A stretch of 64,000 nucleotides of DNA. Origin: Actinomycetes bacterium. Lineage in GTDB: Bacteria; Actinomycetota; Coriobacteriia; Coriobacteriales; Eggerthellaceae. Shown piece by piece: positions 23,711 through 53,010 of this stretch (positions are counted from its first letter, which is position 1; every line of letters starts with the position of its first letter). The notes beneath the pieces are model-generated. The model was not told the origin of the DNA and ran no database searches. It was given only the letters and a program-made list of their open reading frames with translations. Where the stretch lies: positions 3,501 to 67,500 of the forward strand of contig JAEZDJ010000065.1 in NCBI GenBank assembly GCA_023429565.1, written 5' to 3'. A program made the position numbers and the translations under genes.

Positions 23711-25024
23711 TTAGTCCTTTTTCTTGAATTTGAGCCTGATAGGCGTTCCGACAAGGTCAAAATTCTCCCGCATGCGGTTCTCGAGATAGCGTTCATAGTT
23801 GTCATCGACCAAATCAGAATGGTTCACGAAGAAGGTGAACTGGGGTGGACGGACCGCAGTCTGCGTGACGTACTTCATGCGGAGCACGGCCTTGCCCTTG
23901 GTGACCACATGCCCAACCTCTCGAATGCCCTGCAGCCAGACGTTGAGCCGGTTCGTCGGAACGGTCTGACCGTAGTTCTCGTACGCCGTGTCCACGGCAT
24001 CCCAGATGCGGTCGACCTTTTTGCCCGTGAGGGCAGAAATGGCGATGACAGGCGCATAGCCCACGAATCCGAGGCGGTCGGCGATGCGCTCACGTATTTC
24101 TGCCTTGGCTTCCGGCCCTTCGACGAGATCCCATTTGTTCAGCACGATGACCATGGCGCAGCCACGGTCGGCCGCGAAGTTGGCAACGCGCTGATCTTGA
24201 TCGGTGAGGCCGATTGACGAGTCGATCACCAGGAGCGCCACATCGGCCCGATCGATGGCCCTCATGGCACGCACAAATCCGTAATACTCCACGTCTTGGT
24301 CAATCTGGCTTTTGCGTCGCAGGCCGGCCGTGTCGACAATGGTGTACTGCTTCCCCGCATGCTCGATATGGGTGTCGATGGCATCGCGCGTGGTGCCGGC
24401 GACATCGGACACGATGGAACGCTCGCCCTGCGCGAACCGGTTCATCAAAGACGACTTGCCCGCATTGGGCCGCCCGATGATGGCCACGTTGATCGACGGA
24501 CTTTCCTCCTCGCCAGGACGACCGACATCGCGAATGGATTCGATGAGGGAGTCAAGCAAGTCGCCTGTCCCATGTCCATGCAAGGCCGAAACGGGCCAAG
24601 GATCCCCCAGCCCCAACTTATAGAACTCCCACGTCTCATCCATGCGGCCCGGCGTGTCCATCTTGTTCACAACGAGGAACACCGGCTTGCCTGATGCATG
24701 CAGGATGCGCGCGACCTCCTCATCCTCAACCTGGATGCCGGTCCTGCCGTCGACGACGAACACGATGGCATCCGCTTCGCTCGCGCCAGCGAGCGCTTGG
24801 TTGCGAATGGATCCTTGGAACGCATCGTCGTGTCCCGTCTCGATTCCGCCCGTGTCGATGAGCGTGAAGGGAACTCCGTTCCAGTCGGTTTCATGGTATG
24901 AGCGATCACGCGTGACGCCGCGCATCTCATGGACGATGGCCTCATCAGCCTGAGCTATGCGGTTGACGAACGTGGACTTGCCAACATTTGGCCGACCCAC
25001 CACCGCGACAATTGGTAACGACAT
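23711..25024 (-). CDS. der: Ribosome-biogenesis GTPase Der (EngA)
   Basis: Two G domains (GRPNVGKST and GRPNAGKSS) plus a KH-like C-terminus; 437 aa. Confidence 0.94.
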   Translation of the reverse strand: MSLPIVAVVGRPNVGKSTFVNRIAQADEAIVHEMRGVTRDRSYHETDWNGVPFTLIDTGGIETGHDDAFQGSIRNQALAGASEADAIVFVVDGRTGIQVEDEEVARILHASGKPVFLVVNKMDTPGRMDETWEFYKLGLGDPWPVSALHGHGTGDLLDSLIESIRDVGRPGEEESPSINVAIIGRPNAGKSSLMNRFAQGERSIVSDVAGTTRDAIDTHIEHAGKQYTIVDTAGLRRKSQIDQDVEYYGFVRAMRAIDRADVALLVIDSSIGLTDQDQRVANFAADRGCAMVIVLNKWDLVEGPEAKAEIRERIADRLGFVGYAPVIAISALTGKKVDRIWDAVDTAYENYGQTVPTNRLNVWLQGIREVGHVVTKGKAVLRMKYVTQTAVRPPQFTFFVNHSDLVDDNYERYLENRMRENFDLVGTPIRLKFKKKD

Positions 25025-40341: not shown

Positions 40342-40539
40342 AGCGCCCCACATGCTCGACTATCCTTTCAAACCTTTGCGTTTTGCCAGCATTCTCCCGG
40401 GCCCCTCCCCGTCGCGCTTCGCCCGAAGCGGATCGCCCGAGAGGAAGTCCACGCAGGTTTTCGCTGATCGGCAAAAGGGAAGAAACGCTATACTGGTGCA
40501 ATACCGCTTTTGCATAGAGATCAAAGGAAGAACACTGCC

Positions 40540-41586
40540 ATGAGCATCGACAGCTTTGAGGCGAGCCGCAAGCGCTCGGACGAGATTCGCGCTGAACTGC
40601 CTGTCCACCCAGAAAAGTACACCATGCTGACCGGCGACCGCCCGACCGGTAGATTGCACCTGGGCCACTACTTCGGTACCATCCGTGAACGCGTCGCTTT
40701 GCAGGACCTGGGAATAACCACACGCGTCATCATCGCCGACTACCAGGTCATCACCGACCGCGACACCACAGAGCACATCCAGGACAACGTGTACAACATG
40801 GTCCTGGACTACCTCGCCTGTGGCCTCGACCCTCAAAAAACCCTGATTTTCACCCACTCCGCCGTTCCTGCCCTGAATCAGCTCATGCTTCCTTTTCTGT
40901 CCTTGGTCACCGAGGCCGAGCTGCAGCGCAACCCCACGGTCAAGTCGGAAATGGAGGCATCGGGCCACGCCTTGACAGGACTGCTGCTCACCTATCCCGT
41001 GCACCAGGCGTGCGACATCCTGTTCTGCAAGGGCAACATCGTGCCCGTCGGCAAGGACCAGCTGCCGCACATCGAACAAACCCGCCTCATCGCGCGCCGC
41101 TTCAACGAGCGCTACAGCAACGTGTTCCCCGAACCCGAGGGCGTGCTGAACGATGCGGTCGAGATTCCCGGACTCGACGGGCGCAAGATGTCGAAGAGCT
41201 ACGGCAACGCCATCAGCCTCTGCCTGAGCGACGAGGAGACGACGAAGCTCATCAAGAAATCGAAAACCGATTCTGAGCGCATGATCAGCTACGACAAGGA
41301 GAATCGTCCCGGCGTCTCTGCCCTGCTGACCACAGCCTCCCTCTGCACCGGGCGCACGGAAGAAGATATCGCCTCCGAAATTGCCGATGCTGGCTCCGGA
41401 ACGCTCAAGAAATACGTCGCAGAAAGCGTGAACGACTACCTCGCTCCCATCCGCGCACGCCGCCGCGAGCTCGAAAAGGACATGAGCTACATCAAAGACG
41501 TGCTGCATGAAGGAAACCGCCAGGCAAACGCGATCGCCGAAGCTACGCTCGACGAGGTTCGCGAGGCCATGGGCATGGTGTACTAG
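40540..41586 (+). CDS. trpS: Tryptophan--tRNA ligase
   Basis: TGDRPTGRLHLGHYFG (HIGH) and KMSKS. ATG at 40540 follows AAAGGAAG. Confidence 0.92.
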   Translation: MSIDSFEASRKRSDEIRAELPVHPEKYTMLTGDRPTGRLHLGHYFGTIRERVALQDLGITTRVIIADYQVITDRDTTEHIQDNVYNMVLDYLACGLDPQKTLIFTHSAVPALNQLMLPFLSLVTEAELQRNPTVKSEMEASGHALTGLLLTYPVHQACDILFCKGNIVPVGKDQLPHIEQTRLIARRFNERYSNVFPEPEGVLNDAVEIPGLDGRKMSKSYGNAISLCLSDEETTKLIKKSKTDSERMISYDKENRPGVSALLTTASLCTGRTEEDIASEIADAGSGTLKKYVAESVNDYLAPIRARRRELEKDMSYIKDVLHEGNRQANAIAEATLDEVREAMGMVY

Positions 41587-41640
41587 GCACTGAATTCGCA
41601 CTGTCTCTTCTGCATGTTTTCTGAACCAGATCATCGATTC

Positions 41641-41670
41641 TTGGCACGAGACGGCATTTTAGGATAGAAT
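41641..41670 (+). promoter_or_regulatory. Putative tRNA-Met promoter (TTGGCA-N18-TAGAAT)
   Basis: Hexamers at 41641-41646 and 41665-41670. Same -10 as the tRNA-Val promoter. Confidence 0.5.
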
Positions 41671-41689: not shown

Positions 41690-41764
41690 GGGCCTATAGC
41701 TCAATGGTGGAGCAGGGGACTCATAATCCCTTGGTTGCAGGTTCGAATCCTGCTGGGCCCACCA
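41690..41764 (+). tRNA. tRNA with anticodon CAT (elongator Met, or Ile2 if lysidinylated), CCA encoded
   Basis: Acceptor GGGCCTA/TGGGCCC (G1-C72, so not an initiator), anticodon loop CTCATAA, T arm GCAGG-TTCGAAT-CCTGC. Confidence 0.88.
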
Positions 41765-41774
41765 TCATCATGTC

Positions 41775-41807
41775 AAGCCAGTTCCTTTAGGAGCTGGCTT
41801 TTTTTGT
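41775..41807 (+). terminator. Rho-independent terminator after tRNA-Met
   Basis: AAGCCAGTTCC-ttta-GGAGCTGGCTT followed by TTTTTTGTTGTT. Confidence 0.8.
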
Positions 41808-41942: not shown

Positions 41943-41972
41943 TTTCCATCCGCCTCGCCCATTGTTTATAAT
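41943..41972 (+). promoter_or_regulatory. Putative promoter of the kinase/HAD/RLP operon (TTTCCA-N18-TATAAT)
   Basis: Perfect -10 at 41967-41972. Leaves a C-rich leader of about 135 nt. Confidence 0.4.
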
Positions 41973-42111: not shown

Positions 42112-43650
42112 ATGGCACAGTACTACCTCACCTATGACGGAGGAACGCAGAGCACGAAAGCCGCCCTGTACCGCGACGACATGACATGCGTGGCCCAACA
42201 CGCCGTGCCGAACCACATCCGATATCCCCAAGCCGATTGGGCCGAAATCGATGCAGACGACTACGTCGAGGCAGTGCGCACCTGTGTTCGCGCCTGCCTC
42301 GAGCAGAGCAACATCGACCCCAACGATGTACGCGCCCTTTGCGGCGATGGGATCATCTGCGGCGTCTTAGGCATCGGGAAAGACGGCAAAGCGGTCACTC
42401 CCTACATTCCCTATCTGGACTCACGCGCAAATGGTATCGCCGAGGAACTGAACGCCCATCCTGATCCGCTGTGGGTCAGCGAAAGCGGCAACAACCGCGT
42501 TGATCCGTTTTACCCCCCGGTGGTTGTGAAATGGCTGCTCGAAAACCGCCCGGGCTTCCGAGAAGAAGTGGCCAAGGTGGTGCCGAACGGCTCCTACATC
42601 GCAGCCCGTCTTGCCGGCCTTTCGGCGGAAGGGGCGTTCATCGACAGCGCCACCCTGTCAGCCTGGCTGGTTGGGTTCGACGCCATGAACAAGCAGTGGT
42701 CCAAAGCCCAGATGGACAATTTGGGCATACCTTTCGACATCCTCCCCTCCATCGTCAATCCTTGGGACGTCATCGGTACCCTGTGCGAGGACGAGGCGCA
42801 CAGCATGGGGCTTCCGGCAGGCATCCCCATCATCGCGGGCGCCGGCGACACCATGCAAAGCAATCTTGGGTGCGGGCTGGTGGAGACCGGCATGGCCGCG
42901 GACGTGGCGGGCACGGCAGCCATGTTCACCGTCATGGTCGACGGCATACACGAGCAGCTCAGCCGAGAATCCAACCTGCTCTTTTCGGTGGGCACTCTAC
43001 CAAACACCTATTTTTACTGGGGCTACATTCGCACCGGAGGCCTTTCGCTGCAATGGTTCCGCGACAAGATATGCGACCGAGCGGACGACCCGGCGTTCTA
43101 CGACGACATGCAGGAACGGGCAGCCGCCGTACCCCCGGGAGCACGAGGCACGCTCTTCATCCCCTATCTCACCGGAGGCACCGGAGAGCTCGCGAACAGC
43201 AGCGCAGGATTCGTCAACATGACATCGAAGAGCGATCAGGCGGAAATGTGGCGCTCCATATTGGAATCTATCGCCTATGAATACCGTTCCCTGACGGATT
43301 CCTTGAACGAATGCGGCATCAGCATCGACAACGTCGTCATCACCGAGGGCGGCAGCAAGTCATCCCTCTGGAACCAGATCAAGGCAGATGTGCTGGAAGT
43401 TCCCACCTACACGCTCCAGAAAAGCGAAGGAGCCCTTCTGGCGAACGCCGTCATGGCAGCCTACGCCATCGGCGACGTGGCGGACTTCAAAGGCGCCATA
43501 GCTCGCTACGTCGAGAGGAAGGACGAGTTCACTCCCGAAAGCACAGCCTGCACGCGCTATCGCACAGCCTTCGGCGTGCAGCAGCAGCTGGTCAAAGAAA
43601 CCATGAAGCCGTCGTTCGATCTCATCAAGGGGCTGCAGGCCCATGAATGA
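42112..43650 (+). CDS. FGGY-family carbohydrate kinase (xylulokinase/ribulokinase-like)
   Basis: MAQYYLTYDGGTQSTKAALY... N-terminal actin-fold phosphate-1 motif; 512 aa; RBS AGAAGGGA. Track ORF starts upstream at TTG 41962. Confidence 0.85.
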   Translation: MAQYYLTYDGGTQSTKAALYRDDMTCVAQHAVPNHIRYPQADWAEIDADDYVEAVRTCVRACLEQSNIDPNDVRALCGDGIICGVLGIGKDGKAVTPYIPYLDSRANGIAEELNAHPDPLWVSESGNNRVDPFYPPVVVKWLLENRPGFREEVAKVVPNGSYIAARLAGLSAEGAFIDSATLSAWLVGFDAMNKQWSKAQMDNLGIPFDILPSIVNPWDVIGTLCEDEAHSMGLPAGIPIIAGAGDTMQSNLGCGLVETGMAADVAGTAAMFTVMVDGIHEQLSRESNLLFSVGTLPNTYFYWGYIRTGGLSLQWFRDKICDRADDPAFYDDMQERAAAVPPGARGTLFIPYLTGGTGELANSSAGFVNMTSKSDQAEMWRSILESIAYEYRSLTDSLNECGISIDNVVITEGGSKSSLWNQIKADVLEVPTYTLQKSEGALLANAVMAAYAIGDVADFKGAIARYVERKDEFTPESTACTRYRTAFGVQQQLVKETMKPSFDLIKGLQAHE

Positions 43651-44296
43651 TCCCCTCATCGTCCGTGCCGCCATTTTCGACTTCGACGGAACCCTCTTCG
43701 ACTCTTCACCCGCCTGGGAGGAGGTGTTGGTCGGATACCTCGACGACTTCGGCGTGCCCGCGCCCGAAGGATGCATCATGGACGAAGTCAAGGCGCTGGG
43801 GCTGCTTGGCGGCGCAAAGAAGTACAGAGAAAGCTACTCTATACCCCGCACGCCCGAGCAGATTGTCGCAAGCTGGCGCAAGGCTATGGGCACGCGCTAT
43901 CGCGAAGACATTCCCCTGCATGCGCACGCACGCACCTATCTTGAAAAACTCAAGGACCAAGGCGTCTATCTGGCGCTGGCGACCGCCATGGAGAGAGACT
44001 TCGTGGAGAGCGCCCTTGAACGCACGGGAGTGGACGCACTCTTCGACCTGGTGGTGACCACCGGCGATCTGGGCGTCGACAAGGGAAGCCCGCGCATTTT
44101 CGAATACTGCATCGAGGCTGGGGCGGCCACAAACGAAACCTCGGTGGTGTTCGAAGACTCCCCCACCGCAGCACGCGTATGCCAAACCGCAGGCATTCCC
44201 GTCATTGGAGTGTTTGACGGGATGTCCGAGCAAGATTTCATGCGCATGCAACCCTATTGCGTGAAAACGATCCGTTCTTATAGCGAACTGCTCTAA
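43643..44296 (+). CDS. HAD-superfamily hydrolase (beta-phosphoglucomutase-like subfamily IA phosphatase)
   Basis: AAIFDFDGTLFDS (DxDGT motif I), ...VFEDSPTAA.... ATGAATGA overlap with the kinase stop. Confidence 0.85.
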   Translation: MNDPLIVRAAIFDFDGTLFDSSPAWEEVLVGYLDDFGVPAPEGCIMDEVKALGLLGGAKKYRESYSIPRTPEQIVASWRKAMGTRYREDIPLHAHARTYLEKLKDQGVYLALATAMERDFVESALERTGVDALFDLVVTTGDLGVDKGSPRIFEYCIEAGAATNETSVVFEDSPTAARVCQTAGIPVIGVFDGMSEQDFMRMQPYCVKTIRSYSELL

Positions 44297-44316
44297 CGCC
44301 AAAAGGAGGCTCACCC

Positions 44317-45630
44317 ATGGGAACGACACACTACGACCCGATCATCTTCTGCCAGACGGAATCCCTCGACCTTGAGGAATTCGTTGTGGCAACCTACCTT
44401 GTCAAGGCCGACACAGCCGACATCCTCATGCGTGCCGGTGCAGTCGCGGTGGAGCAGACCACCGGGACCTGGATGCGCGTGCCCGACGAAACCGACGAGG
44501 TGCGCCGCAAGCATGTCGGGCGCGTCATAGCCGTCTACAACGTGCCCGGATACGAAGTCACCTGCCCCGACCGCACGCGAACCTGCATCATGAAAATAGC
44601 CTTCCCTTGGAAGAACTTCGGGCATCAGCAGCCCGAGATGCTTTCCACCGTGTTCGGAAACATATCCATGACCGAACATCTGCAGCTGCTTGACCTTGAA
44701 TTTCCCAAAACCTTCACCGACGGCTTCGCCGGTCCGCAGTTCGGCGTGCAGGGCGTGCGCGACATCATTGGAGTGCACGACCGTCCGCCCGTGCTTGCCA
44801 TGATAAAGCCCTGCACCGGGATACCGGTCGATGTCATCGAGCGCCAATTCTACAACCTGGCCATGGCGGGGATCGACATGGTGAAAGACGATGAGCTCAT
44901 AGCCGACCCGGAACATGCCCCCTTCTATGAGCGCCTTGAAGCATGCCTGCGAGCCAGCGAGCGAGCCTATCAGGAAACGGGACACCGCACCCACTATCTT
45001 CCCAACATCACCGATCGACAGGATCGCCTCTACGACAAGGCGCGCAAGGCGGTCGAGATGGGTGCCACCATGCTGATGCTGAACGTCCACGCGAGCGGTT
45101 ATGGAACCATGTCGGCACTTGCCGACGACCCGCGCATCAATGTGCCCCTTCTCGCTCATCCCTGCTTCGCCGGAGCGGCGTATATGGGAAGTGACTCGGG
45201 GCTCTCCTCCCACCTCATTCACGGCAAGTTCATGCGTCTCGACGGCGCCGACATGGTGGTCTATCCTTGCGCCTACGGCAAGGTCCCCACCCTGCCCGAT
45301 CGCTATGTTCGCATTGCGCAAAGCCTTCTCAGCGGCTTCAACGGCCTGAAGAACGCCTTCCCCTCCCCCGCAGCCGGCCTGTATCCCGGGCTGGTCCCCC
45401 AGGTGCTGACCGACCTGGGAGAAGACATCCTGCTTGGCGCAGGGGCCGCCATGCACGCGCACCCCGACGGGCTGCGTGCTGGCATCCTCGCGCTCCAGCA
45501 GGCGGCAGAGGCATGGAAGTTAGGGGTGCCTTTGGAAGAGTATCGCCGCGACCATCCCGAGCTGGATGCTTCGCTGAACATATGGCCGGAATTCTGCCCC
45601 GGAAAATCAATCTACGAACTGACCAACTGA
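44317..45630 (+). CDS. RuBisCO-like protein (form IV RbcL homologue)
   Basis: DRPPVLAMIKPCTGIP...AMAGIDMVKDDEL aligns by eye to RbcL GRPLLGCTIKPKLGLS...GGLDFTKDDEN. C-terminal SPAAGL and LLGAGAAMHAHP match RbcL loops. RBS AAAGGAGG. Confidence 0.85.
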   Translation: MGTTHYDPIIFCQTESLDLEEFVVATYLVKADTADILMRAGAVAVEQTTGTWMRVPDETDEVRRKHVGRVIAVYNVPGYEVTCPDRTRTCIMKIAFPWKNFGHQQPEMLSTVFGNISMTEHLQLLDLEFPKTFTDGFAGPQFGVQGVRDIIGVHDRPPVLAMIKPCTGIPVDVIERQFYNLAMAGIDMVKDDELIADPEHAPFYERLEACLRASERAYQETGHRTHYLPNITDRQDRLYDKARKAVEMGATMLMLNVHASGYGTMSALADDPRINVPLLAHPCFAGAAYMGSDSGLSSHLIHGKFMRLDGADMVVYPCAYGKVPTLPDRYVRIAQSLLSGFNGLKNAFPSPAAGLYPGLVPQVLTDLGEDILLGAGAAMHAHPDGLRAGILALQQAAEAWKLGVPLEEYRRDHPELDASLNIWPEFCPGKSIYELTN

Positions 45631-45664: not shown

Positions 45665-45702
45665 GGGGCCAGCCGGAGCATGTTCCGGCTGGCCCCTTTC
45701 GT
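45665..45702 (+). terminator. Bidirectional GC-rich terminator hairpin
   Basis: GGGGCCAGCCGG-agcatgtt-CCGGCTGGCCCC followed by TTTCGTT. Lies between convergent genes. Confidence 0.75.
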
Positions 45703-45753
45703 TCGGCATGCCGTTTTCGAACGCCTGAGGGGAACGCGAAACACCTCACGCGC

Positions 45754-45972
45754 TCAACCCAGCTCCTTGAAAAATTCCTTTGCGGAATCGCTTGTCACAA
45801 GCCGTTTGTCTATCAATCCAAAATAGGTCGTTTTCGGAGCAGAATGCTTTTTCTTGCAGGTCCCAATGCATCCGAACTTCAGAGAGCATCCCGCCTCCTT
45901 GGCGCGAGCCTTGAGTTCCTTGGGATCGAAATCGGTGCAACGCTTGCACACTTTGACCTTCTTCATGGGCAT
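45754..45972 (-). CDS. Hypothetical 72-aa Lys- and Cys-rich protein
   Basis: MPMKKVKVCKRCTDFDPKELKARAKEAGCSLKFGCIGTCKKKH... Strong RBS GAAGGAGG 5 nt upstream. Confidence 0.65.
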   Translation of the reverse strand: MPMKKVKVCKRCTDFDPKELKARAKEAGCSLKFGCIGTCKKKHSAPKTTYFGLIDKRLVTSDSAKEFFKELG

Positions 45973-46167
45973 CCTCCTTCAGATCGTGGTCCTCAGCTCC
46001 AAGGCGCCGCGATGTCGCGTGCGTACGCCAAAAGGCGCGAGGGGGTACAGCAAACGCTTCCAACCGTCAACCGCAGATCGAAGGCATATTCACATTCTAC
46101 CGCACACGCTCCTTCTCTTCCCCGTCGTCTCGGCTGGCGTTATTATGGTCATGAGGAGGTGATTTTC

Positions 46168-46311
46168 ATGGTCTATAAAACAGGCGAGAAGCCCGGAAAG
46201 GGAACCTACCGGTGCACGCTGTGCGGAGAGATCGTCGTGCTGGATGACGATTCGGACGCCCTGCCACCGTGCCCCAAGTGCTTCCACACCGAGTACGAGA
46301 AGGTATCCTAG
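46168..46311 (+). CDS. 47-aa zinc-ribbon protein
   Basis: MVYKTGEKPGKGTYRCTLCGEIVVLDDDSDALPPCPKCFHTEYEKVS (CxxC...CxxC). RBS GAGGAGG upstream. Only visible as the tail of a longer track ORF. Confidence 0.7.
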   Translation: MVYKTGEKPGKGTYRCTLCGEIVVLDDDSDALPPCPKCFHTEYEKVS

Positions 46312-46407: not shown

Positions 46408-46482
46408 TGGCTCCCCGGGTAGGATTCGAACCTACAACCCTCCGGTTAACAGCCGGATGCTCTGCCGTTGAGCTACCGAGGA
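46408..46482 (-). tRNA. tRNA-Asn (anticodon GTT), CCA encoded
   Basis: Reverse complement: TCCTCGG-TA-GCTC..GAGC-A-TCCGG-CTGTTAA-CCGGA-GGGTT-GTAGG-TTCGAAT-CCTAC-CCGGGGA-G-CCA. Confidence 0.9.
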
Positions 46483-46544: not shown

Positions 46545-47090
46545 TACCGATTTTTGCATTTTTTCAGGATGCGCCTGTCGACCCAATCCAACCGGAAGCG
46601 CTTCTTTGGCGCAGCCGTTCAACCCTCTCTCAACAGGGGCTTCCCCTCATCCACGCACTTCGGTGCCAGCCATCCGCCCTCTTTTCCTTTTCCGGTTCTT
46701 CAAAGGAAAAAGACCGGGATCTGCATACAGAGACGCTGTTTCATCCCCGTTCCGATGAAAAGGTTTGCCAGACGAATATCTCATACCGAAAGGATTAGCA
46801 TCAGCTTGGCTCAGTTTGAAATACTGAATTCTCTTCCCTCATATCATATGGGGGACACAAAGACCCATGGCCTCTTCATACTTCACTGCGTTCGGAACGG
46901 ACCTTCGTCTTCGCGCTGTCTGTCCAAATGCCCCCATCGTTTGTTGGTCGTATTTCGCAGCTTAACCTGCACACCGCCCGCAGCAACGTTGAAGGGGCAG
47001 GAGAAAAGAGAGAAGGAGACGCAGGGGAAGACGGACCGACGCACCAAGATCGCACTAGACGACGGGAGAAGAATGAAAGAGGAGGAGAAC

Positions 47091-49496
47091 ATGGCCGATT
47101 CCATCGAGGCCTCCACGCAAGAACATTGGGGGGAAACCAACGGAAAGAAATATCGCCGCGGCTCGCGCCTGCCGAAAAAAACCGACAGTCGACCACCGGC
47201 CCCCACAGCGGAGACCCCGAAAGTTCCTTGGACGTGGGAAGAAGACGGCATGACCGTCATACGCGGCACGGCACGAAGCGCTCCGGGATGTCATAACGTA
47301 TGCGGCATCCTTTCCTACGTGAAAAACGGGAAGCTGATCAAAGTGGAAGGCGATCCAGAGGACCCCTATAACCAAGGGCGGCTCTGCAGCCGTTGCCTCT
47401 GCATCCCCGACTATGTCTACCACGAGGATCGTCTGCTGCATCCGATGAAGCGAGACCGCTCAAACCGCGGCAAGGACAAGTTCGTAGAGATCTCGTGGGA
47501 CGAAGCCTATGAGATCATCACGCGCGAGTTTAAGCGGATCGTCGACACCTACGGCGCTGACAAGATTGCCATGTGCCAAGGCACGGGTCGCGACATCCAT
47601 CAGGTCACGCGGCTGAACGCCTGCATAGGATCTCCCAACGAAGGCGTGCCATACTTCGCTGGCAACTCCTGCTATCTGCCCCGCATCGCCTCAATGGCAT
47701 GCATGCTGGGCGGCTCCTGCGTCATGGACTGCTCCCAGTTCCTTCCCAAGCGTTACGACGATCCGCGCTACACCGTGCCCGAATATTGCATCGTCTGGGG
47801 CCACCAGCCCTTTTACAGCAACGCTGACGGTTTTTACGGACACTGGATCACGGATTTGATGAAACGCGGAATGAAAGTGGCCGTCGTCGATCCCCAACTC
47901 ACCTGGCTCGCCGCCCGGGCAGGAAAAGACTGGTTACGCGTGCGTCCCGGCGGAGATGGCGCGTTGGCCATGGCCATGCTGAAGATCATCTGTGACGAAA
48001 AGCTCTACGACCAAGATTTCTGCGATATGTGGGTCTATGGTCTAGAAGCCGTTTGCGAGCGCGTCGGCGAAATGGACTTGGACGATCTCTGCGAAAGGGC
48101 ATGGGTCGACAAGGAAGATGTCGTCCGCGTAGCCCGCACCTACGCCTCCGCACATCCCGCCGCCATCCAGTGGGGAGTTGCACTCGACCAGCAGACGGGT
48201 GGACAGCAAGCCGCTCATGCCATCACGGCAATGTGGTGCATCACCGGTAACCTTGATGTTCCGGGTGGCAATGTCATGGGAGACGCCTGTTGGGGAATCG
48301 ATCAGCCAAACTGGGTCGGCACGTGGGGATGGGACGAGCTCATGACCGAGGAAGAGCAGTCCAAGCGCATTGGCGTAGAACGCTACCCCATGTTCGCCGT
48401 CGGCTTCAAGAACCTGTCCTCCAACGCCACCATTGAAGCGTGGCAGCGTGGCGAGATCCCCATTCGCGGCGCCTACATCGTCACCAACAACTTTCTTGCC
48501 ACGATGGGAGCCCAGGCCGAGCAACAACTTGAATGGTACAAAAACATCGACTTCGTCGTGGTTTCAGACCTTTTCATGACACCCACCATGATGGCGCTTG
48601 CCGATGTCGTGCTGCCTGCCGCCACCTATGAGGAACGCGACGGATTCGGCGGGCTTAACGCCTACAGAATCAGCTGCATCAACAAGGCGATCGAACCGGT
48701 TGGTGACTCCAAGCCGGACAACACCATCTTTCTCGAATTAGGAAAACACCTGACCGATGCAATCAAACCCGCCAATAGCGATATCGCCTGGCCATGGGCC
48801 AGCGTCCAAGAGATGTGGGATTACGCGCTCGAGGACGGCGGATTCACTTGGGACGAACTGCGCGATTCCACATGGAAGTACCCTGAGTTCAAGTATCGCA
48901 AATACGAAACGGGAGACCTGCGGCCCGACGGCCAACCAGGTTTCCGCACTGAGACCGGACGTGCGGAAATCTATTCCATGGTGTTCCATCACACCTCGTG
49001 GTCAGGCCTCGATCCGCTGCCGAGCTACGTCGAGCCGGTGGAAAGCCCTTACAGCGCCCCCGACGACGTTGCCGAGTATCCCTATATCGTCACCTCCGGT
49101 GCCCGCGTGCCGCACTTCTTTCACTCCGAGCAGCGCCAGATCAAAAAACTCCGCACCCTGCATCCTGACCCGCTCGCGTATCTACATCCCAGCACTGCCC
49201 GCGCACACGGCATAGAGGAGGGCGACTGGATCTGGCTGGAGAACAAGCACGGCAAATGCAAATACAAAGCTTCGTTCAATGACACCTACGACCCCCGCGT
49301 ATTGCAGGCGGAGCATGGCTGGTGGTTCCCGGAACGCAAGAATGACGCCGAAGAAAACCTGGACGAGGAAAAGAAGGGATTGTTCGGCGTTCTCGAGTCG
49401 AACATCAACAATCTGGTGCCTTTCGATGCGGGCGTGTCAGGCTTTGGCTCGAACTACAAGGCCATGATGTGCAAGATCTACAAGGCCGATAAATAG
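47091..49496 (+). CDS. Molybdopterin (bis-MGD, DMSO-reductase superfamily) oxidoreductase catalytic subunit A, no Tat signal
   Basis: 801 aa from the ATG after GAAAGAGGAGGAG. Blocks: SAPGCHNVCG...EGDPEDPYNQGRLCSRC, ITGNLDVPGG, HGWWFPE. C-terminal beta-barrel text resembles the acetylene-hydratase/pyrogallol-transhydroxylase branch (from memory). The 179-codon upstream extension in the track is low-complexity. Confidence 0.85.
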   Translation: MADSIEASTQEHWGETNGKKYRRGSRLPKKTDSRPPAPTAETPKVPWTWEEDGMTVIRGTARSAPGCHNVCGILSYVKNGKLIKVEGDPEDPYNQGRLCSRCLCIPDYVYHEDRLLHPMKRDRSNRGKDKFVEISWDEAYEIITREFKRIVDTYGADKIAMCQGTGRDIHQVTRLNACIGSPNEGVPYFAGNSCYLPRIASMACMLGGSCVMDCSQFLPKRYDDPRYTVPEYCIVWGHQPFYSNADGFYGHWITDLMKRGMKVAVVDPQLTWLAARAGKDWLRVRPGGDGALAMAMLKIICDEKLYDQDFCDMWVYGLEAVCERVGEMDLDDLCERAWVDKEDVVRVARTYASAHPAAIQWGVALDQQTGGQQAAHAITAMWCITGNLDVPGGNVMGDACWGIDQPNWVGTWGWDELMTEEEQSKRIGVERYPMFAVGFKNLSSNATIEAWQRGEIPIRGAYIVTNNFLATMGAQAEQQLEWYKNIDFVVVSDLFMTPTMMALADVVLPAATYEERDGFGGLNAYRISCINKAIEPVGDSKPDNTIFLELGKHLTDAIKPANSDIAWPWASVQEMWDYALEDGGFTWDELRDSTWKYPEFKYRKYETGDLRPDGQPGFRTETGRAEIYSMVFHHTSWSGLDPLPSYVEPVESPYSAPDDVAEYPYIVTSGARVPHFFHSEQRQIKKLRTLHPDPLAYLHPSTARAHGIEEGDWIWLENKHGKCKYKASFNDTYDPRVLQAEHGWWFPERKNDAEENLDEEKKGLFGVLESNINNLVPFDAGVSGFGSNYKAMMCKIYKADK

Positions 49497-49518
49497 CAGC
49501 CAGGAAGGAATGAAAGAC

Positions 49519-49863
49519 ATGGCATATCAAGGCATTTTGGTAGACGTTGACTTCTGCACCGGCTGCGAAGCCTGCATCCTCGCCTGCCAGCAGGAACACG
49601 GCTACTCCGAGAAGGAGTACGGCCTGACCATCACGAAGCTTGGCCCACTGCACATCAACGAGTCACAAAAGGACTACCAATACGATTTCATCCCACAGTT
49701 CACCAAATGGTGCGACCTCTGCAAAAACCGCGTGAGCAAGGGCAAGCGACCCACCTGCGTGCAGCATTGTCAGGCACAGTGTCTCGACTGGGGTGACATG
49801 GAGGACCTCGCGAAGAGGATCGACTCCACCAAGCAGATGATTGTCGCCATCACTCAGGCCTAA
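49519..49863 (+). CDS. Small 4Fe-4S ferredoxin-type electron-transfer subunit A (114 aa)
   Basis: MAYQGILVDVDFCTGCEACILAC (Cx2Cx2Cx3C) and CDLC...CVQHCQAQC. RBS AGGAAGGAA. Confidence 0.85.
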   Translation: MAYQGILVDVDFCTGCEACILACQQEHGYSEKEYGLTITKLGPLHINESQKDYQYDFIPQFTKWCDLCKNRVSKGKRPTCVQHCQAQCLDWGDMEDLAKRIDSTKQMIVAITQA

Positions 49864-49936
49864 GGTCAATCGAGCCGACGTCACCCGAGCGCAGGGTGCT
49901 GGCCAAGGCAATAGAACGAGGGGAAGGAGGTCAACC

Positions 49937-50137
49937 ATGACTCAACAGTTTGAAGATGATTTTGGCGGACGAATCGCCGAGAGGCTGATGCATGTCGACG
50001 TGCGCATGGCCGGTGTGAATAGCCATGAAATCACACAGCCAGAACGCGAGCAAGGACATATCGACTGGAAGGATCAAAACTCCGCCAACATGAAGAAGAT
50101 GGCGCGCGGCGAAGTCACCCCCATCTACCACCAATAA
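49937..50137 (+). CDS. Hypothetical 66-aa soluble protein
   Basis: MTQQFEDDFGGRIAERLMHVDVRMAGVNSHEITQPEREQGHIDWKDQNSANMKKMARGEVTPIYHQ. Very strong RBS GGAAGGAGG 6 nt upstream. Confidence 0.6.
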   Translation: MTQQFEDDFGGRIAERLMHVDVRMAGVNSHEITQPEREQGHIDWKDQNSANMKKMARGEVTPIYHQ

Positions 50138-50215
50138 CCGTCGCGCCTCTCCCGCGATGGGGAAACACGATGCCGAGCACGGGAGCGCACAAGACGAAGG
50201 CGGCACCGCTCCAAG

Positions 50216-50250
50216 CGTGCTGCTGCGGCGAGAACCGCCGCAGCAGCACG
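50216..50250 (+). other. Perfect 15-bp GC-rich hairpin (5-nt loop) in the 220-nt gap inside the cluster
   Basis: CGTGCTGCTGCGGCG-agaac-CGCCGCAGCAGCACG. No U-tract follows. Confidence 0.6.
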
Positions 50251-50357
50251 AGACAGACCGTCCCATCAGCACGGCAAGACAATGCCCGCGATGATGGAAC
50301 AAACGGATTGCCTCACAAGCGCAATCTCGACCGACCACACGAAGCAAAGGAAAAACC

Positions 50358-51416
50358 ATGGCACAAAACAAGACCATCGATATCAACATGCACTTCCTGC
50401 CCACCGACTTGTTCACCGACGAACAGGTGCTGAACGGTTTTCTGTACTCTGCGCCTGTATCGTTCGGCATGAAGGCTTACATCGACAAGACGCCAGACGG
50501 CGCAAAAGACCAGCTCATCCTGGAGTATCCTGAGGGCAAGCAAATCCTCAACTATGTCGAGGGTGACTATACGCTTGAGACGAAGCTCCAGGCCATGGAC
50601 GAAAGTGGCGTGGACATCGCCCTTCTGCGCATGCCTGTGTGGCAGGAATGGCTGCCGCTGGATATCTGCAAGATCGTGAACGACCAGGCTGCCGAGATGT
50701 GCAAGCGTTCGGGCGGACGCCTGTACGCCAACGCCGTCGTCCCACCGTGGAACCGCAAAGAGGACATATACGAACTCGAGCGCTGCATCGGAGACCTAGG
50801 GATGGTGGGCGTGCAGCTGGCCTGCTGCTACGGCGACCGCTTCCTCGACGACCAACTCTTCAAGCCCTACCTTAGGGTCATCAACGACAAAAAGATCCCG
50901 GTCGTCGTGCACCACACGCCCGGCCAGAACGCCTACGATAACTTCGACGAGTACACAGTGTTACGCCGCGAGCTCGGCCGCGTCCATGCGCAGGCGGCAG
51001 CAGTGGGCCGAGAGATCTATTCGGGCATGTTCGACGAGTTCGAAAACTTGAAGTTCATACACACCATGTTTGGGGGCAACTGGTTCAGCTTGCAAAACAT
51101 CTTGGCCCCGCACCGATCCACCAAGAAGAAAGAGGCCATGAATCGTCTCGTCACCAACGTCGACCATGAGGCATATGACCGCTATCTGACCAACAACATT
51201 TATTTCGATATGACACATCCCATGAGTTGGGGAAAGGATCAACTCGAGTGTGCTGTGAAGGTGAGCGGAGCCGACCATCTGCTGCTGGGTTCATCGTTTC
51301 CTGTGTTCTATGAGTGGATGGCCCGCTCCGTGGAGTCCATCAACGCCATGAGCGTACCTCAGGAGGACAAGGACCTCATGCTGGGCGGCAACGCGGCGAA
51401 GCTGTTCAATTTGTAA
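50358..51416 (+). CDS. Amidohydrolase_2 (PF04909-like; ACMSD/LigW/LigI fold) family protein with non-canonical active-site positions
   Basis: TIDINMHFLP N-terminus, VVVHHTPG, YFDMTH, LLGSSFPVF. 352 aa. RBS AAAGGAAAAA. Confidence 0.75.
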   Translation: MAQNKTIDINMHFLPTDLFTDEQVLNGFLYSAPVSFGMKAYIDKTPDGAKDQLILEYPEGKQILNYVEGDYTLETKLQAMDESGVDIALLRMPVWQEWLPLDICKIVNDQAAEMCKRSGGRLYANAVVPPWNRKEDIYELERCIGDLGMVGVQLACCYGDRFLDDQLFKPYLRVINDKKIPVVVHHTPGQNAYDNFDEYTVLRRELGRVHAQAAAVGREIYSGMFDEFENLKFIHTMFGGNWFSLQNILAPHRSTKKKEAMNRLVTNVDHEAYDRYLTNNIYFDMTHPMSWGKDQLECAVKVSGADHLLLGSSFPVFYEWMARSVESINAMSVPQEDKDLMLGGNAAKLFNL

Positions 51417-51537
51417 GACGAGCGATCGGCGCACCGGCTTACTGAAACCAGTGCGCCGAAGCGAAAGAACGTCGACCAGCATCTTTCTGAAAAAACTATG
51501 GATGCCCGTAAGGGGGGCGTCCGAAAGAGGGGAAACT

Positions 51538-53010
51538 ATGAACAATCCTTCTGCCGCTGCAACCGGTGCACCTGTGACGAAATCCATGGAGAAAACACCG
51601 CCTTACGCCTGGCCATGCCTGATCGTGTCCTTGCTCGCGGGCATCGGCATGGTGTTCGCCTGGATGTGGCTGCCAAGCGTCACGTTCCCGGTGTTCAATA
51701 GCTGGCTCACCGAGAACAATGCGTTTTTCGCAAACCCCGCTAACTTCGGCCTGCTTTCCAATGTCATGGGGCTCGTTCCCATCGGTGCCCTTATCATGGC
51801 CCTTCCCACCACGTTTCTCGTACGCAAATTCGGCCCGAAAGCCACGACGCTTATCGGTCTCGGTGCCGCAGTCGTAGGGACGTCGCTGAGTGCAGCCACC
51901 GTAGGTGGCGACTTCTATCTCTTCTTGGCGGGACGTTTCATCCTCGGCCTTGGGCTTTCCACCTGCGTAGTCGCAGGTCCCACTTGTGTATCCATATGGT
52001 TTCCCGACTCCACGCGCGGACGTGCCATGGCCATTTGGTCCTGTTGGGCCCCCATTGGCATCTTCCTGTCCAACTTCGTCAATGACAGCGTGTACCATCT
52101 GGCAGGTTCAAGCATCGCAAACCTTCAGTGGGTGTGGGCGGCGGTCGCCCTCGTGCTGGGCATCGTGTTTGCCGTCGTGTTCCGTGAACCACGCGCCGAA
52201 GAGCGTTCGCAGGTATCGCCCGAACGCAAACCGCTCAAGGCCGTCCTGAAGTTCTTCAAGAGCCGCCAGCTGTGGTGCCTCATCGTCATGTTTGCCATCT
52301 TCAACTACATGAACTACGCCTTCAGCCAATATCTGAAAACCTGGCTCCAAACCCCCGAACTGCTTGGCGGCTTGGGATGGGATGCGACGACTGCCGGCCT
52401 CTGGGGCGGCCTGATTGTAGCCTGCGGTGCCCTCGCCCCCATCGGCGGCCTTATCCTCGACAAGACGCCCAAGGACAAGAAGTACCTCTGCGTGGTCGTC
52501 GGCATCTTGGGACTCACCATCTGCTCAGCCCTGGCGTTCCATGCCGAGTTCTTCATCCCGTACGTGCTGTTCTTCTGCATTGGAAACATGATGCTGAACG
52601 CCTGCTGCCGCCCACTCGTTCCGACATTCGTATTCAAGGGCGGCGCCACCGCTGTCGCGTTCGGCCTGTCCTTCCTGACGCTAGGGCAGTACGCCGGACA
52701 GATTGCCACAAGCTACGTGCTCACACCGTTCAGCAACGGCCTCACCGCGGCCTCCAACGTAGCCATCGAAGCCAAGAAAGCCGTGCTCGCTGCGGGAGGC
52801 TCCCCTGCCGATTTCGGTGCCGCCATCGACCAGGCCGCACAAGAAGCGCTTGTGCAAGGCATCCATGTGGACCCGATGCTGGCCTTCTGGGCGCTCGTGC
52901 CCATCGGCATCATCGGCTGTCTGCTGAGCTTTGGCGTCATGCCTTCCAAGAAGCGGGCTGGCACTCCCGCCAGCAATCCCGCTGAAGACCAGACGGCATC
53001 CCAGCATTAG
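51538..53010 (+). CDS. MFS transporter 1
   Basis: 490 aa with about 12 hydrophobic segments. RKFGPK loop between TM2 and TM3. RBS AAAGAGGGGAAA. Confidence 0.85.
   Translation: MNNPSAAATGAPVTKSMEKTPPYAWPCLIVSLLAGIGMVFAWMWLPSVTFPVFNSWLTENNAFFANPANFGLLSNVMGLVPIGALIMALPTTFLVRKFGPKATTLIGLGAAVVGTSLSAATVGGDFYLFLAGRFILGLGLSTCVVAGPTCVSIWFPDSTRGRAMAIWSCWAPIGIFLSNFVNDSVYHLAGSSIANLQWVWAAVALVLGIVFAVVFREPRAEERSQVSPERKPLKAVLKFFKSRQLWCLIVMFAIFNYMNYAFSQYLKTWLQTPELLGGLGWDATTAGLWGGLIVACGALAPIGGLILDKTPKDKKYLCVVVGILGLTICSALAFHAEFFIPYVLFFCIGNMMLNACCRPLVPTFVFKGGATAVAFGLSFLTLGQYAGQIATSYVLTPFSNGLTAASNVAIEAKKAVLAAGGSPADFGAAIDQAAQEALVQGIHVDPMLAFWALVPIGIIGCLLSFGVMPSKKRAGTPASNPAEDQTASQH

Follow-up and report, generated by a model that had tools for sequence, protein, structure and literature searches.

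The stretch of DNA analysed here, hereafter the window, is 64,000 nucleotides long, comes from a gut-type anaerobe of the family Eggerthellaceae, and carries at 42112-45630, all on the plus strand and as one unit, genes for an FGGY-family kinase, a HAD phosphatase and a RuBisCO-like protein (RLP). A first-pass annotation, made from the letters of the sequence, had noticed this grouping and we confirm it. The genes and the signals around them are as follows.

41943-41972, plus strand: promoter-like site TTTCCA-18-TATAAT, matching the consensus at 10 of 12 positions and placed 140 nt before the start codon of the kinase gene
42112-43650, plus strand: FGGY kinase, 512 amino acids; Pfam FGGY_N 3e-37 (129 bits) and FGGY_C 2.4e-23 (83 bits), both over cut-off
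43643-44296, plus strand: predicted HAD-IA phosphatase, 217 amino acids; Pfam HAD_2 3e-22 (80 bits)
44302-44309, plus strand: ribosome-binding site AAAGGAGG of the RLP gene, 7 nt 5′ of its start codon, found by inspection of the sequence
44317-45630, plus strand: RLP of the ENK type defined below, 437 amino acids; RuBisCO_large 6.5e-36 (124.5 bits) and RuBisCO_large_N 4.2e-10 (40.3 bits), both over cut-off
45665-45706, plus strand: intrinsic terminator, consisting of a hairpin (45665-45696) with a 14-bp GC-rich stem, then a T-rich tail

The start of the HAD gene overlaps the kinase stop by 8 nt (ATGAATGA at 43643-43650), and 20 nt separate the HAD and RLP genes, with AAAGGAGG inside the gap. 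The overlap, the gap and the ribosome-binding site had each been pointed out before, and together with the shared terminator they bear out the view of three tightly packed genes as a single unit. The terminator itself, which had been called strong, is convincing: its hairpin has a free energy of -39.4 kcal/mol (z = -5.2), and none of 200 shuffled sequences folds equally well. The upstream TATAAT box that had also been claimed is indeed present, but only two such promoter-like matches against 1.3 expected were found in the region, and because this number is close to chance the site at 41943-41972 counts as weak evidence. A riboswitch in the 140-nt kinase leader was considered and rejected, since the Rfam search of the leader matched only a tRNA; flavin mononucleotide (FMN) riboswitches were confined to the riboflavin-operon loci described below.

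The active site of the RLP was examined by aligning 88, and later 164, RLPs from the collected loci (numbered with an L) with spinach RbcL, in whose sequence 19/19 landmark residues fall at their published numbers. The window RLP retains 12 of the 19 canonical RuBisCO active-site residues (E60, T65, W66, N123, K175, K201, D203, E204, H294, K334, G381 and G403 in spinach numbering). Its E46, N115, K164, K190, D192, E193, H281 and K322 correspond to spinach E60, N123, K175, K201, D203, E204, H294 and K334, all of which are invariant across 84 sequences of the ENK type. The Mg2+/carbamate centre and the P1 phosphate site are complete, and the site for C4-C5 and the second phosphate is lost, its residues now being small or hydrophobic. 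In RuBisCO, E60, N123 and K334 handle CO2 or the carboxylate. The changes relative to spinach are T173M, K177C, R295P, H298A, H327V, S379A and G404A, the last six at C166, P282, A285, V315, A352 and A377 of the RLP; within the subclade of the window the substitutes are, in that order, M, C, P, A or S, V (C in L086), A (C in L085) and A (G in L086 and L087). With R295, H298, H327 and others lost, the RLP therefore cannot bind the C5 phosphate of ribulose-1,5-bisphosphate (RuBP), and the predicted distal pocket, lined by M, C, P, A, V and A, fits a short substrate with a non-polar end. Three types of RLP could be told apart at three of these positions.

Lys type (MtnW): G at position 60, K at 123 and S, N or T at 334; MtnX is always a neighbour, MtnB adjoins nearly always, MtnA, MtnK and MtnD are often nearby, and an FGGY kinase never is
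ENK type (84 sequences, including the window): E at 60, N at 123 and K at 334; K175, K201, D203, E204 and H294 kept, and T173, K177, R295, H298, H327, S379 and G404 replaced
GNG type: G at 60, N at 123 and G at 334; the neighbours, TIM, RpiB, an FAD dehydrogenase, an FGGY kinase and an ABC transporter, are erythritol-like

GNG-type RLPs, in which E60 and K334 are both Gly, were seen at L026, L032, L049, L050, L051, L054 and L062. Their gene set resembles that of erythritol catabolism in Brucella, with the RLP taking the place of the EryC racemase.

Among solved structures, the best relatives of the window RLP in a sequence search of the PDB are the 2,3-diketo-5-methylthiopentyl-1-phosphate (DK-MTP-1-P) enolases, MtnW, of Geobacillus, Alicyclobacillus and Bacillus, at 1e-86 (2oek) to 2e-75, as compared with 3.5e-33 for 3qfw, a match of the Rhodospirillum rubrum 'DeepYkr' type. 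Similarly, the top fold match of its AlphaFold model (pLDDT 87.8) is Geobacillus MtnW (2oem; TM-score 0.85/0.91, 38% identity), and its best NCBIfam match is an MtnW model, though below cut-off. Indeed, both MtnW models are missed (NF007095, 365.8 against a cut-off of 409; TIGR03332, 321.1 against 513.6), as are the OiaX decarboxylase model NF042437 (159.2 against 700) and the form III RuBisCO model (218.8 against 497). With both RuBisCO domains present and some RuBP-binding residues lost, the protein falls within form IV in the broad sense; the RuBisCO fold, the carbamylatable K190 and the invariant Mg2+ ligands D192 and E193 are superfamily-wide traits that do not discriminate further.

The position that does discriminate is Lys98 of MtnW (Geobacillus kaustophilus numbering). 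This residue of the N-terminal domain, which we take to be the catalytic base of the enolase, is the one that Imker and co-workers are said to have described in 2007 as the general base taking the C1 proton. It aligns with Asn115 of the window RLP, and Asn is found there in every ENK- and GNG-type relative, while every MtnX-adjacent RLP carries Lys. Among Lys-type RLPs flanked on each side by 3 kb or more, MtnX lies within 2.5 kb in 41/41 and an FGGY kinase within 6 kb in 0/41; homologs of MtnK, MtnA, MtnB, MtnX and MtnD were absent from the 64-kb window and from every subclade locus. The first-pass annotation had named tight clustering with MtnW as an outcome that would count against a new function: in the tree MtnW is the closest characterised relative, so that the kinship stands, but the RLP does not lie inside the MtnW clade. 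On these comparisons the RLP, a form IV protein, is sister to the methionine-salvage enolase, is not MtnW and is not explained by methionine salvage; it is a member of an unstudied family that keeps the CO2-handling residues of RuBisCO. Members of the clade carry the label '2,3-diketo-5-methylthiopentyl-1-phosphate enolase' in JGI pipelines and in one NCBI record of a metagenome-assembled genome (MAG; a 52%-identical relative). Because all sequenced relatives down to 42% identity are without the catalytic Lys98, this label is very likely wrong for these clade members.

Orthologous kinase, HAD and RLP genes are linked not only in the window but also in L006, L001 (Lachnotalea glycerini), L002, L004, L008, L089, L168 and L169. 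Leaving aside the near-identical L006, identities to the window in these loci are 60-74% for the RLP, 52-61% for the kinase and 35-49% for the HAD protein, and the ranges widen to 55-74% for the RLP and 49-61% for the kinase when orthologous loci are taken more broadly; the hosts include Eggerthellaceae, Lachnospiraceae (Lachnotalea glycerini), other Bacillota represented by MAGs and a Tissierellia MAG. A metagenome scan added at least five loci at 50% identity or more, one of them a repeat of L002. In L007 (Synergistaceae) and L085 the kinase and RLP occur without the HAD gene, which is retained in 8 of about 12 subclade loci. Four gene orders occur, kinase-HAD-RLP, kinase-DUF1097-HAD-RLP, RLP-HAD-kinase and kinase-RLP-HAD, and kinase-DUF1097-HAD-AP_endonuc_2-RLP was seen as well; this variety argues for selection on the linkage. 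The triad, whose conservation elsewhere had been proposed as a check, is thus co-conserved in distant anaerobes and in four different orders. A regulator of the SorC or YhfZ type is usually present in the orthologous loci, for example in Lachnotalea glycerini, where the cluster reads SorC-kinase-DUF1097-HAD-RLP, and accessory genes encode the DUF1097 membrane protein and xylose-isomerase-fold, nitroreductase, Fe-alcohol dehydrogenase and glyoxalase-fold proteins. The earlier statement that no transporter or regulator is linked to the operon is accordingly true of the window but does not extend to the orthologous loci, with their SorC- or YhfZ-type regulators and DUF1097 membrane protein.

We also counted neighbours across the wider ENK clade, using the 53 loci that have 3 kb or more of flanking sequence on each side and accepting a kinase up to 6 kb away and a phosphatase up to 2.5 kb away. 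An FGGY kinase was present at 31/53, either a kinase or EIIA_2/EIIC-GAT genes of the phosphotransferase system (PTS) at 38/53, and a phosphatase at 17/53. The RLP-adjacent phosphatases of the clade belong to five unrelated families (HAD-IA, MtnX-like HAD, Cof-type HAD, PHP and His_Phos_1), and the swapping of one family for another makes a good case for a dephosphorylation step in these pathways; the phosphatase step of the first-pass proposal therefore looks integral. That either a kinase or the PTS can do the phosphorylating suggests a carbohydrate-like substrate taken from outside. Genes for class III aminotransferases, short-chain and FAD dehydrogenases, a MIP channel and Dak1/Dak2 also occur around these RLPs. 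The ENK type is thus a wide radiation among anaerobes, varied in function and uncharacterised.

Several branches of this radiation have settings of their own. One subclade is ordered FGGY kinase, class III aminotransferase and RLP, often followed by an MtnX-like HAD (L014, L019, L022-L024, L027, L056, L077, L106, L107, L110, L115, L145-L147 and L150), which suggests an amino-sugar or amino-polyol variant. At L009, L025, L030, L091, L092, L100 and L111, ENK RLPs stand without a kinase beside PTS genes (EI, EIIA_2, EIIC-GAT) and PHP phosphoesterases, and at loci of this kind the PTS seems to replace the kinase. Two distinct RLP paralogs share a cluster in L016 (4157-5473 and 9998-11314), L111 (9995-11311 and 14863-16200), L096 and L133, suggesting consecutive RLP-catalysed steps. 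In L130 (173-10917) and L057 (4057-14811) the RLP is accompanied by a DAO/Pyr_redox_2/DUF1667 trio resembling glycerol-3-phosphate dehydrogenase, two FGGY kinases, a short-chain dehydrogenase and AP_endonuc_2, and in Clostridium thailandense it is found with a MIP channel and Dak1/Dak2. Such settings are of the glycerol or dihydroxyacetone type.

The window kinase, whose N-terminus agrees with those of its orthologs, reaches none of the NCBIfam equivalog cut-offs (XylB, 206 against 380 bits; LsrK, 137 against 528; GntK, GlpK, FucK, AraB and RhaB likewise), and the same is true of kinases from ten loci, save for one ordinary GlpK. No close solved relative of it was found. It forms a clade, K1, with the kinases of other RLP loci (49-61% identity) and is 46-47% identical to kinases encoded in riboflavin (rib) operons, which in the tree nest within the RLP-linked clade. 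These operons consist of an FMN riboswitch and ribD-ribE-ribA-ribH with the kinase last (L171 5733-10566, L174 3761-8551, and also L172 and L175-L177), the gap preceding the kinase being 32 nt in L171 and 12 nt in L174. Their ribA product, at 199-202 amino acids, is GTP cyclohydrolase II alone, and no RibB domain, that of 3,4-dihydroxy-2-butanone 4-phosphate (DHBP) synthase, was found in the 15-20 kb of sequence around the rib-operon kinases. This context suggests 3,4-dihydroxy-2-butanone, or a short 1-deoxyketose like it, as the substrate of the kinase clade, and the rib-operon kinase may supply the four-carbon riboflavin precursor. A literature search returned no paper that pairs an FGGY kinase with riboflavin genes or deals with a bacterial dihydroxybutanone kinase, although subscription journals may differ.

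Two observations on the kinase families stand apart from this argument. Group II intron domains (Rfam RF02001, RF01998 and RF00029) lie just upstream of the L174 riboflavin operon, at 1372-2478. The 90% cluster of the kinase (P0182; 3,726 members) includes 426-amino-acid entries named 'L-cysteine desulfidase', and its size was not used as a measure of abundance because mis-clustered proteins are included.

The HAD protein has its catalytic motifs D13-x-D15-G16-T17, K147 and E171-D172 invariant in 7 orthologs, and among solved structures the Thermotoga sugar-phosphate phosphatase TM_1254 is its best relative; phosphoglycolate phosphatase models of NCBIfam match it weakly. Judged by these motifs it should be a competent HAD-IA phosphatase, although it might instead act as a mutase. 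The likening of this protein to MtnX in the first-pass annotation holds as an analogy, that of an RLP followed by a phosphatase, but not as homology of type: MtnX is of a different HAD type (Pfam HAD/Put_Phosphatase), and Fictibacillus MtnX gave no BLAST match among the window open reading frames (ORFs) at E < 1e-6.

Taken together, we tentatively favour a reading in which the operon encodes a route that would phosphorylate a short (C4-C5) keto-sugar-like compound, rearrange it through an enediolate and then dephosphorylate it, the order kinase, RLP, phosphatase being the one we infer. The FGGY kinase would first phosphorylate the terminal CH2OH of a C4-C5 ketose, 1-deoxyketose or dicarbonyl compound; in order of preference the candidates are 3,4-dihydroxy-2-butanone, an erythrulose-type tetrulose and 4,5-dihydroxy-2,3-pentanedione (DPD, or AI-2). 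The RLP, whose P1-site residues are in place, would hold the single phosphate there as RuBisCO does, and carbamylated Lys190 with Mg2+ on D192 and E193 would generate a 2,3-cis-enediolate, which would then be tautomerised or isomerised. The mechanism of MtnW is not available to it, because the base Lys98 is replaced by Asn115. The phosphate esters of dihydroxybutanone, erythrulose and DPD share the motif P-O-CH2-CHOH-C(=O)-, which would set a 2,3-enediolate on the Mg2+ as in RuBisCO, and the methyl end of such a substrate would suit the hydrophobic pocket. Finally, the HAD-IA enzyme would hydrolyse the RLP product, as MtnX does after MtnW, and in some relatives a neighbouring nitroreductase, Fe-alcohol dehydrogenase, short-chain dehydrogenase, glyoxalase-fold or xylose-isomerase-fold enzyme might process the released carbonyl. 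The small or hydrophobic distal residues and the presence of the kinase clade in rib operons with no RibB domain in the surrounding 15-20 kb point to a C4-C5 ketose or 1-deoxyketose; for the same two reasons the pentulose, hexulose or polyol that had been proposed as substrate is probably too large. Membership in a specific AI-2 (Lsr) system was rejected, since neither the kinase nor the regulators specifically resemble their Lsr counterparts (the SorC regulators of the orthologous loci are nearer to SorC/DeoR, at about 1e-31, than to LsrR, at 5e-17); the gene tables of the orthologous loci hold no lsrF/lsrG or lsrACDB, and AI-2 is only a chemically plausible substrate. In all, the RLP probably performs previously undescribed chemistry on a small phosphorylated keto-sugar.

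A number of observations sit uneasily with this route. It would spend ATP and end in a phosphatase with no obvious yield of energy; the HAD gene is absent in L007, L085, L086 and L170, and only about one third of ENK loci have an adjoining phosphatase. Strict conservation of E60, N123 and K334 would be needless in a simple proton-transfer isomerase, and E60 and K334 are gone from the related GNG-type RLPs, whose clusters are erythritol-like. The kinase and the SorC regulators bear no specific likeness to LsrK or LsrR, and the absence of RibB applies to the 15-20 kb around the rib-operon kinases.

It is the conserved E60, N123 and K334 that give weight to an alternative we regard as doubtful yet worth weighing, namely that the RLP makes or breaks a carbon-carbon bond. 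Here it would carboxylate and cleave a monophosphorylated short ketose (for example, dihydroxybutanone-4-phosphate to 3-phosphoglycerate and acetate, or erythrulose-1-phosphate to 3-phosphoglycerate and glycolate) or decarboxylate a 3-keto acid-sugar phosphate; the kinase would serve as phosphoribulokinase does, and the HAD protein as a clean-up phosphatase like CbbY or CbbZ of cbb operons. The residues with which RuBisCO enolises its substrate, adds CO2, hydrates and cleaves do not vary among the 84 ENK sequences, in which only the distal and second-phosphate binders are altered, and E60, N123 and K334 are missing from MtnW, as are E60 and K334 from the GNG RLPs. Against this, K177 is lost. 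RLPs of the apiose pathway, for which there is one citation, decarboxylate or transcarboxylate 3-oxo-isoapionate-4-phosphate, and some relatives of the window RLP lie with ascorbate- or keto-gulonate-like genes (EIIC-GAT, EIIA_2, AP_endonuc_2 and Aldolase_II), but the OiaX model scores 159 against its cut-off of 700 and the operon has no bicarbonate-related or carbonic anhydrase gene. The phosphatases can be read both ways: the HAD protein weakly matches phosphoglycolate phosphatase models and in L057 a His_Phos_1 protein, from the family of cofactor-dependent phosphoglycerate mutase, adjoins the RLP, but within the window subclade phosphatases are too regular for a role in repair alone. In its boldest form, which we consider rather improbable, the proposal would make the ENK RLPs 'mini-RuBisCOs' of anaerobes, with the whole machinery for carboxylation, hydration and cleavage retained and the distal pocket rebuilt for a short monophosphorylated (deoxy)tetrulose that is carboxylated and cleaved, or decarboxylated.

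We think it unlikely that the operon is instead a catabolic module for a tetritol, a tetrulose or another small, erythritol- or threitol-like polyol, in which the RLP would shift the carbonyl of a ketose phosphate or epimerise it to give a central metabolite such as erythrulose-4-phosphate or a triose phosphate and the HAD protein would be accessory or regulatory and not the last step. The neighbours of GNG-type RLPs (TIM, RpiB, FAD dehydrogenase, FGGY kinase and ABC transporter) match the EryH/EryI/EryB/EryA set of Brucella, and those of ENK RLPs include short-chain and FAD dehydrogenases, AP_endonuc_2, a MIP channel, Dak1/Dak2, PTS EIIC-GAT and SorC regulators, whereas the window operon itself includes neither a dehydrogenase nor a transporter nor a downstream isomerase. 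Lachnotalea glycerini is one carrier in culture, and according to a published genome paper most RLPs are thought to be isomerases or epimerases; the distal pocket, however, is hydrophobic where a polar one would be expected for a polyhydroxylated tail, and the HAD gene is translationally coupled to the kinase and kept in those 8 of about 12 subclade loci. Finally, anaerobic methionine salvage or salvage of 5′-deoxyadenosine by-products, with the RLP as an MtnW-type enolase and the HAD protein as its MtnX, is very improbable and we reject methionine salvage because of the missing catalytic residue, the scores below cut-off and the genes nearby, for although MtnW is the nearest characterised relative (2oek at 1e-86, TM-score 0.85-0.91, top NCBIfam match), the pairing of RLP and HAD mirrors MtnW and MtnX and both distal pockets are hydrophobic, Lys98 is absent, both MtnW cut-offs are missed, no MtnK, MtnA, MtnB, MtnX or MtnD homolog lies in the window or the subclade loci, the HAD subfamily is not that of MtnX, the kinase is FGGY and not MtnK-like, and the dioxygenase step is impossible in a strict anaerobe.

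The preferred route, in which a short keto compound would be phosphorylated, rearranged and dephosphorylated, can be set beside several known systems. The nearest in sequence and fold is the MtnW/MtnX pair of Bacillus and Geobacillus, which shares the Lys-carbamate and Mg2+ ligands, the hydrophobic distal pocket, and a pathway in which a kinase acts at an earlier stage and the RLP is followed by a dedicated phosphatase. Unlike MtnW, the window RLP has Asn for Lys98 and keeps the E60 and K334 that MtnW has lost; its phosphatase is HAD-IA, its kinase FGGY, its hosts anaerobic, and its operon lacks mtnA, mtnB and mtnD. RuBisCO forms I-III and the cbb operons are alike in 12/19 active-site residues and in the logic of kinase, RuBisCO-fold enzyme and HAD-IA phosphatase, but the window RLP is without T173, K177, R295, H298, H327, S379 and G404 and the operon without phosphoribulokinase. 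The RLPs of D-apiose catabolism act on a small monophosphorylated keto compound delivered by a dedicated kinase, with carboxyl chemistry on C4-C5 skeletons; there the kinase is DUF1537 and here FGGY, the window holds no apionate genes, and the OiaX cut-off is missed. DeepYkr of Rhodospirillum rubrum, a 5-methylthioribulose-1-phosphate 1,3-isomerase, similarly moves a carbonyl along a ketose-1-phosphate via enediolates and accepts a non-polar substrate end, but it is far more distant than MtnW, and its partner is a cupin methylsulfurylase and not an FGGY kinase or HAD. Lastly, Lsr (LsrK, LsrR, LsrG) and Brucella Ery (EryA, EryD, EryC) combine an FGGY kinase, a SorC-family regulator and an enediol-type isomerase and form phosphorylated products whose P-O-CH2-CHOH-C(=O) motif would suit the RLP site, whereas the window shows no specific similarity to LsrK or LsrR, lacks LsrF/G and EryB/H/I, uses an RLP as the isomerase and adds a phosphatase.

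The first-pass annotation knew of no RLP pathway with an FGGY kinase, and a literature search found no paper linking an RLP with an FGGY kinase or with erythritol, though subscription journals may carry an earlier mention. The functional range of RLPs was still described as unknown in a 2020 genome paper. What is new here is the RLP clade, the FGGY partner kinase and, probably, the reaction; an RLP pathway with a kinase and a phosphatase is of a known kind.

The host had been called a strict anaerobe. Its place in the Eggerthellaceae is established, the window Der GTPase being 80-83% identical to those of Eggerthella, Gordonibacter and Arabiibacter, and this family is strictly anaerobic. The same operon occurs in 'Actinomycetes bacterium OH_SBrB_24' (RLP 98%, kinase 92% and HAD 90% identical); beyond that lineage the closest RLPs are at most 75% identical, and those with a named source belong to Bacillota, Tissierellia, Synergistaceae and other anaerobes, none to Eggerthellaceae. 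A neighbour-joining tree places the window RLP amid sequences from Bacillota and Synergistota. The operon is bounded by tRNA-Met and tRNA-Asn genes, an island-like placement despite ordinary GC content, which is unremarkable against the surroundings; no integrase was seen among the ORFs of the stretch around it. The relatives outside the family, the tree position and the tRNA flanks therefore indicate that the operon was probably acquired horizontally. The surrounding features are listed here.

40510-41586, plus strand: class I Trp/Tyr-tRNA synthetase, a genuine gene upstream of tRNA-Met
41690-41764, plus strand: tRNA-Met, the upstream boundary (Rfam tRNA 73.3 bits; ARAGORN anticodon CAT), with its own promoter-like site (41641-41670) and terminator (41775-41800)
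46408-46482, minus strand: tRNA-Asn, the downstream boundary (ARAGORN)

The longest ORF of the upstream stretch, of 424 amino acids on the minus strand (40360-41634), was considered as a partner gene and found to be spurious, as it is antisense to the tRNA synthetase gene and without a Pfam match. Similarly, a 437-amino-acid ORF at 23711-25024 was rejected as a second RLP, since it is the Der GTPase. Downstream of the operon lie a DUF1451 zinc-ribbon protein (45844-46311) and, at 46554-53010, a 980-amino-acid molybdopterin oxidoreductase with its 4Fe-4S partner, an amidohydrolase and a major facilitator superfamily transporter. This is a typical Eggerthellaceae reductase cluster unrelated to the operon.

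Only a few RLPs have an assigned function, and every such assignment has brought to light new enolate chemistry together with a new pathway. The operon is a compact, mobile three-enzyme unit of strict anaerobes. Assigning its RLP would correct the automatic DK-MTP-1-P enolase label that is widespread on the clade, and the reaction would show how the RuBisCO site passes between proton-transfer and carboxylation chemistry. If the 'mini-RuBisCO' proposal were true, the FGGY kinase would take the place of phosphoribulokinase and the HAD protein that of CbbY or CbbZ, and, linked to this, the kinase clade would possibly supply the four-carbon riboflavin precursor where the rib operon lacks RibB. In gut Bacillota, the presence of that clade in rib operons around which no RibB domain was seen could be a sign that this four-carbon precursor has a source so far unrecognised.

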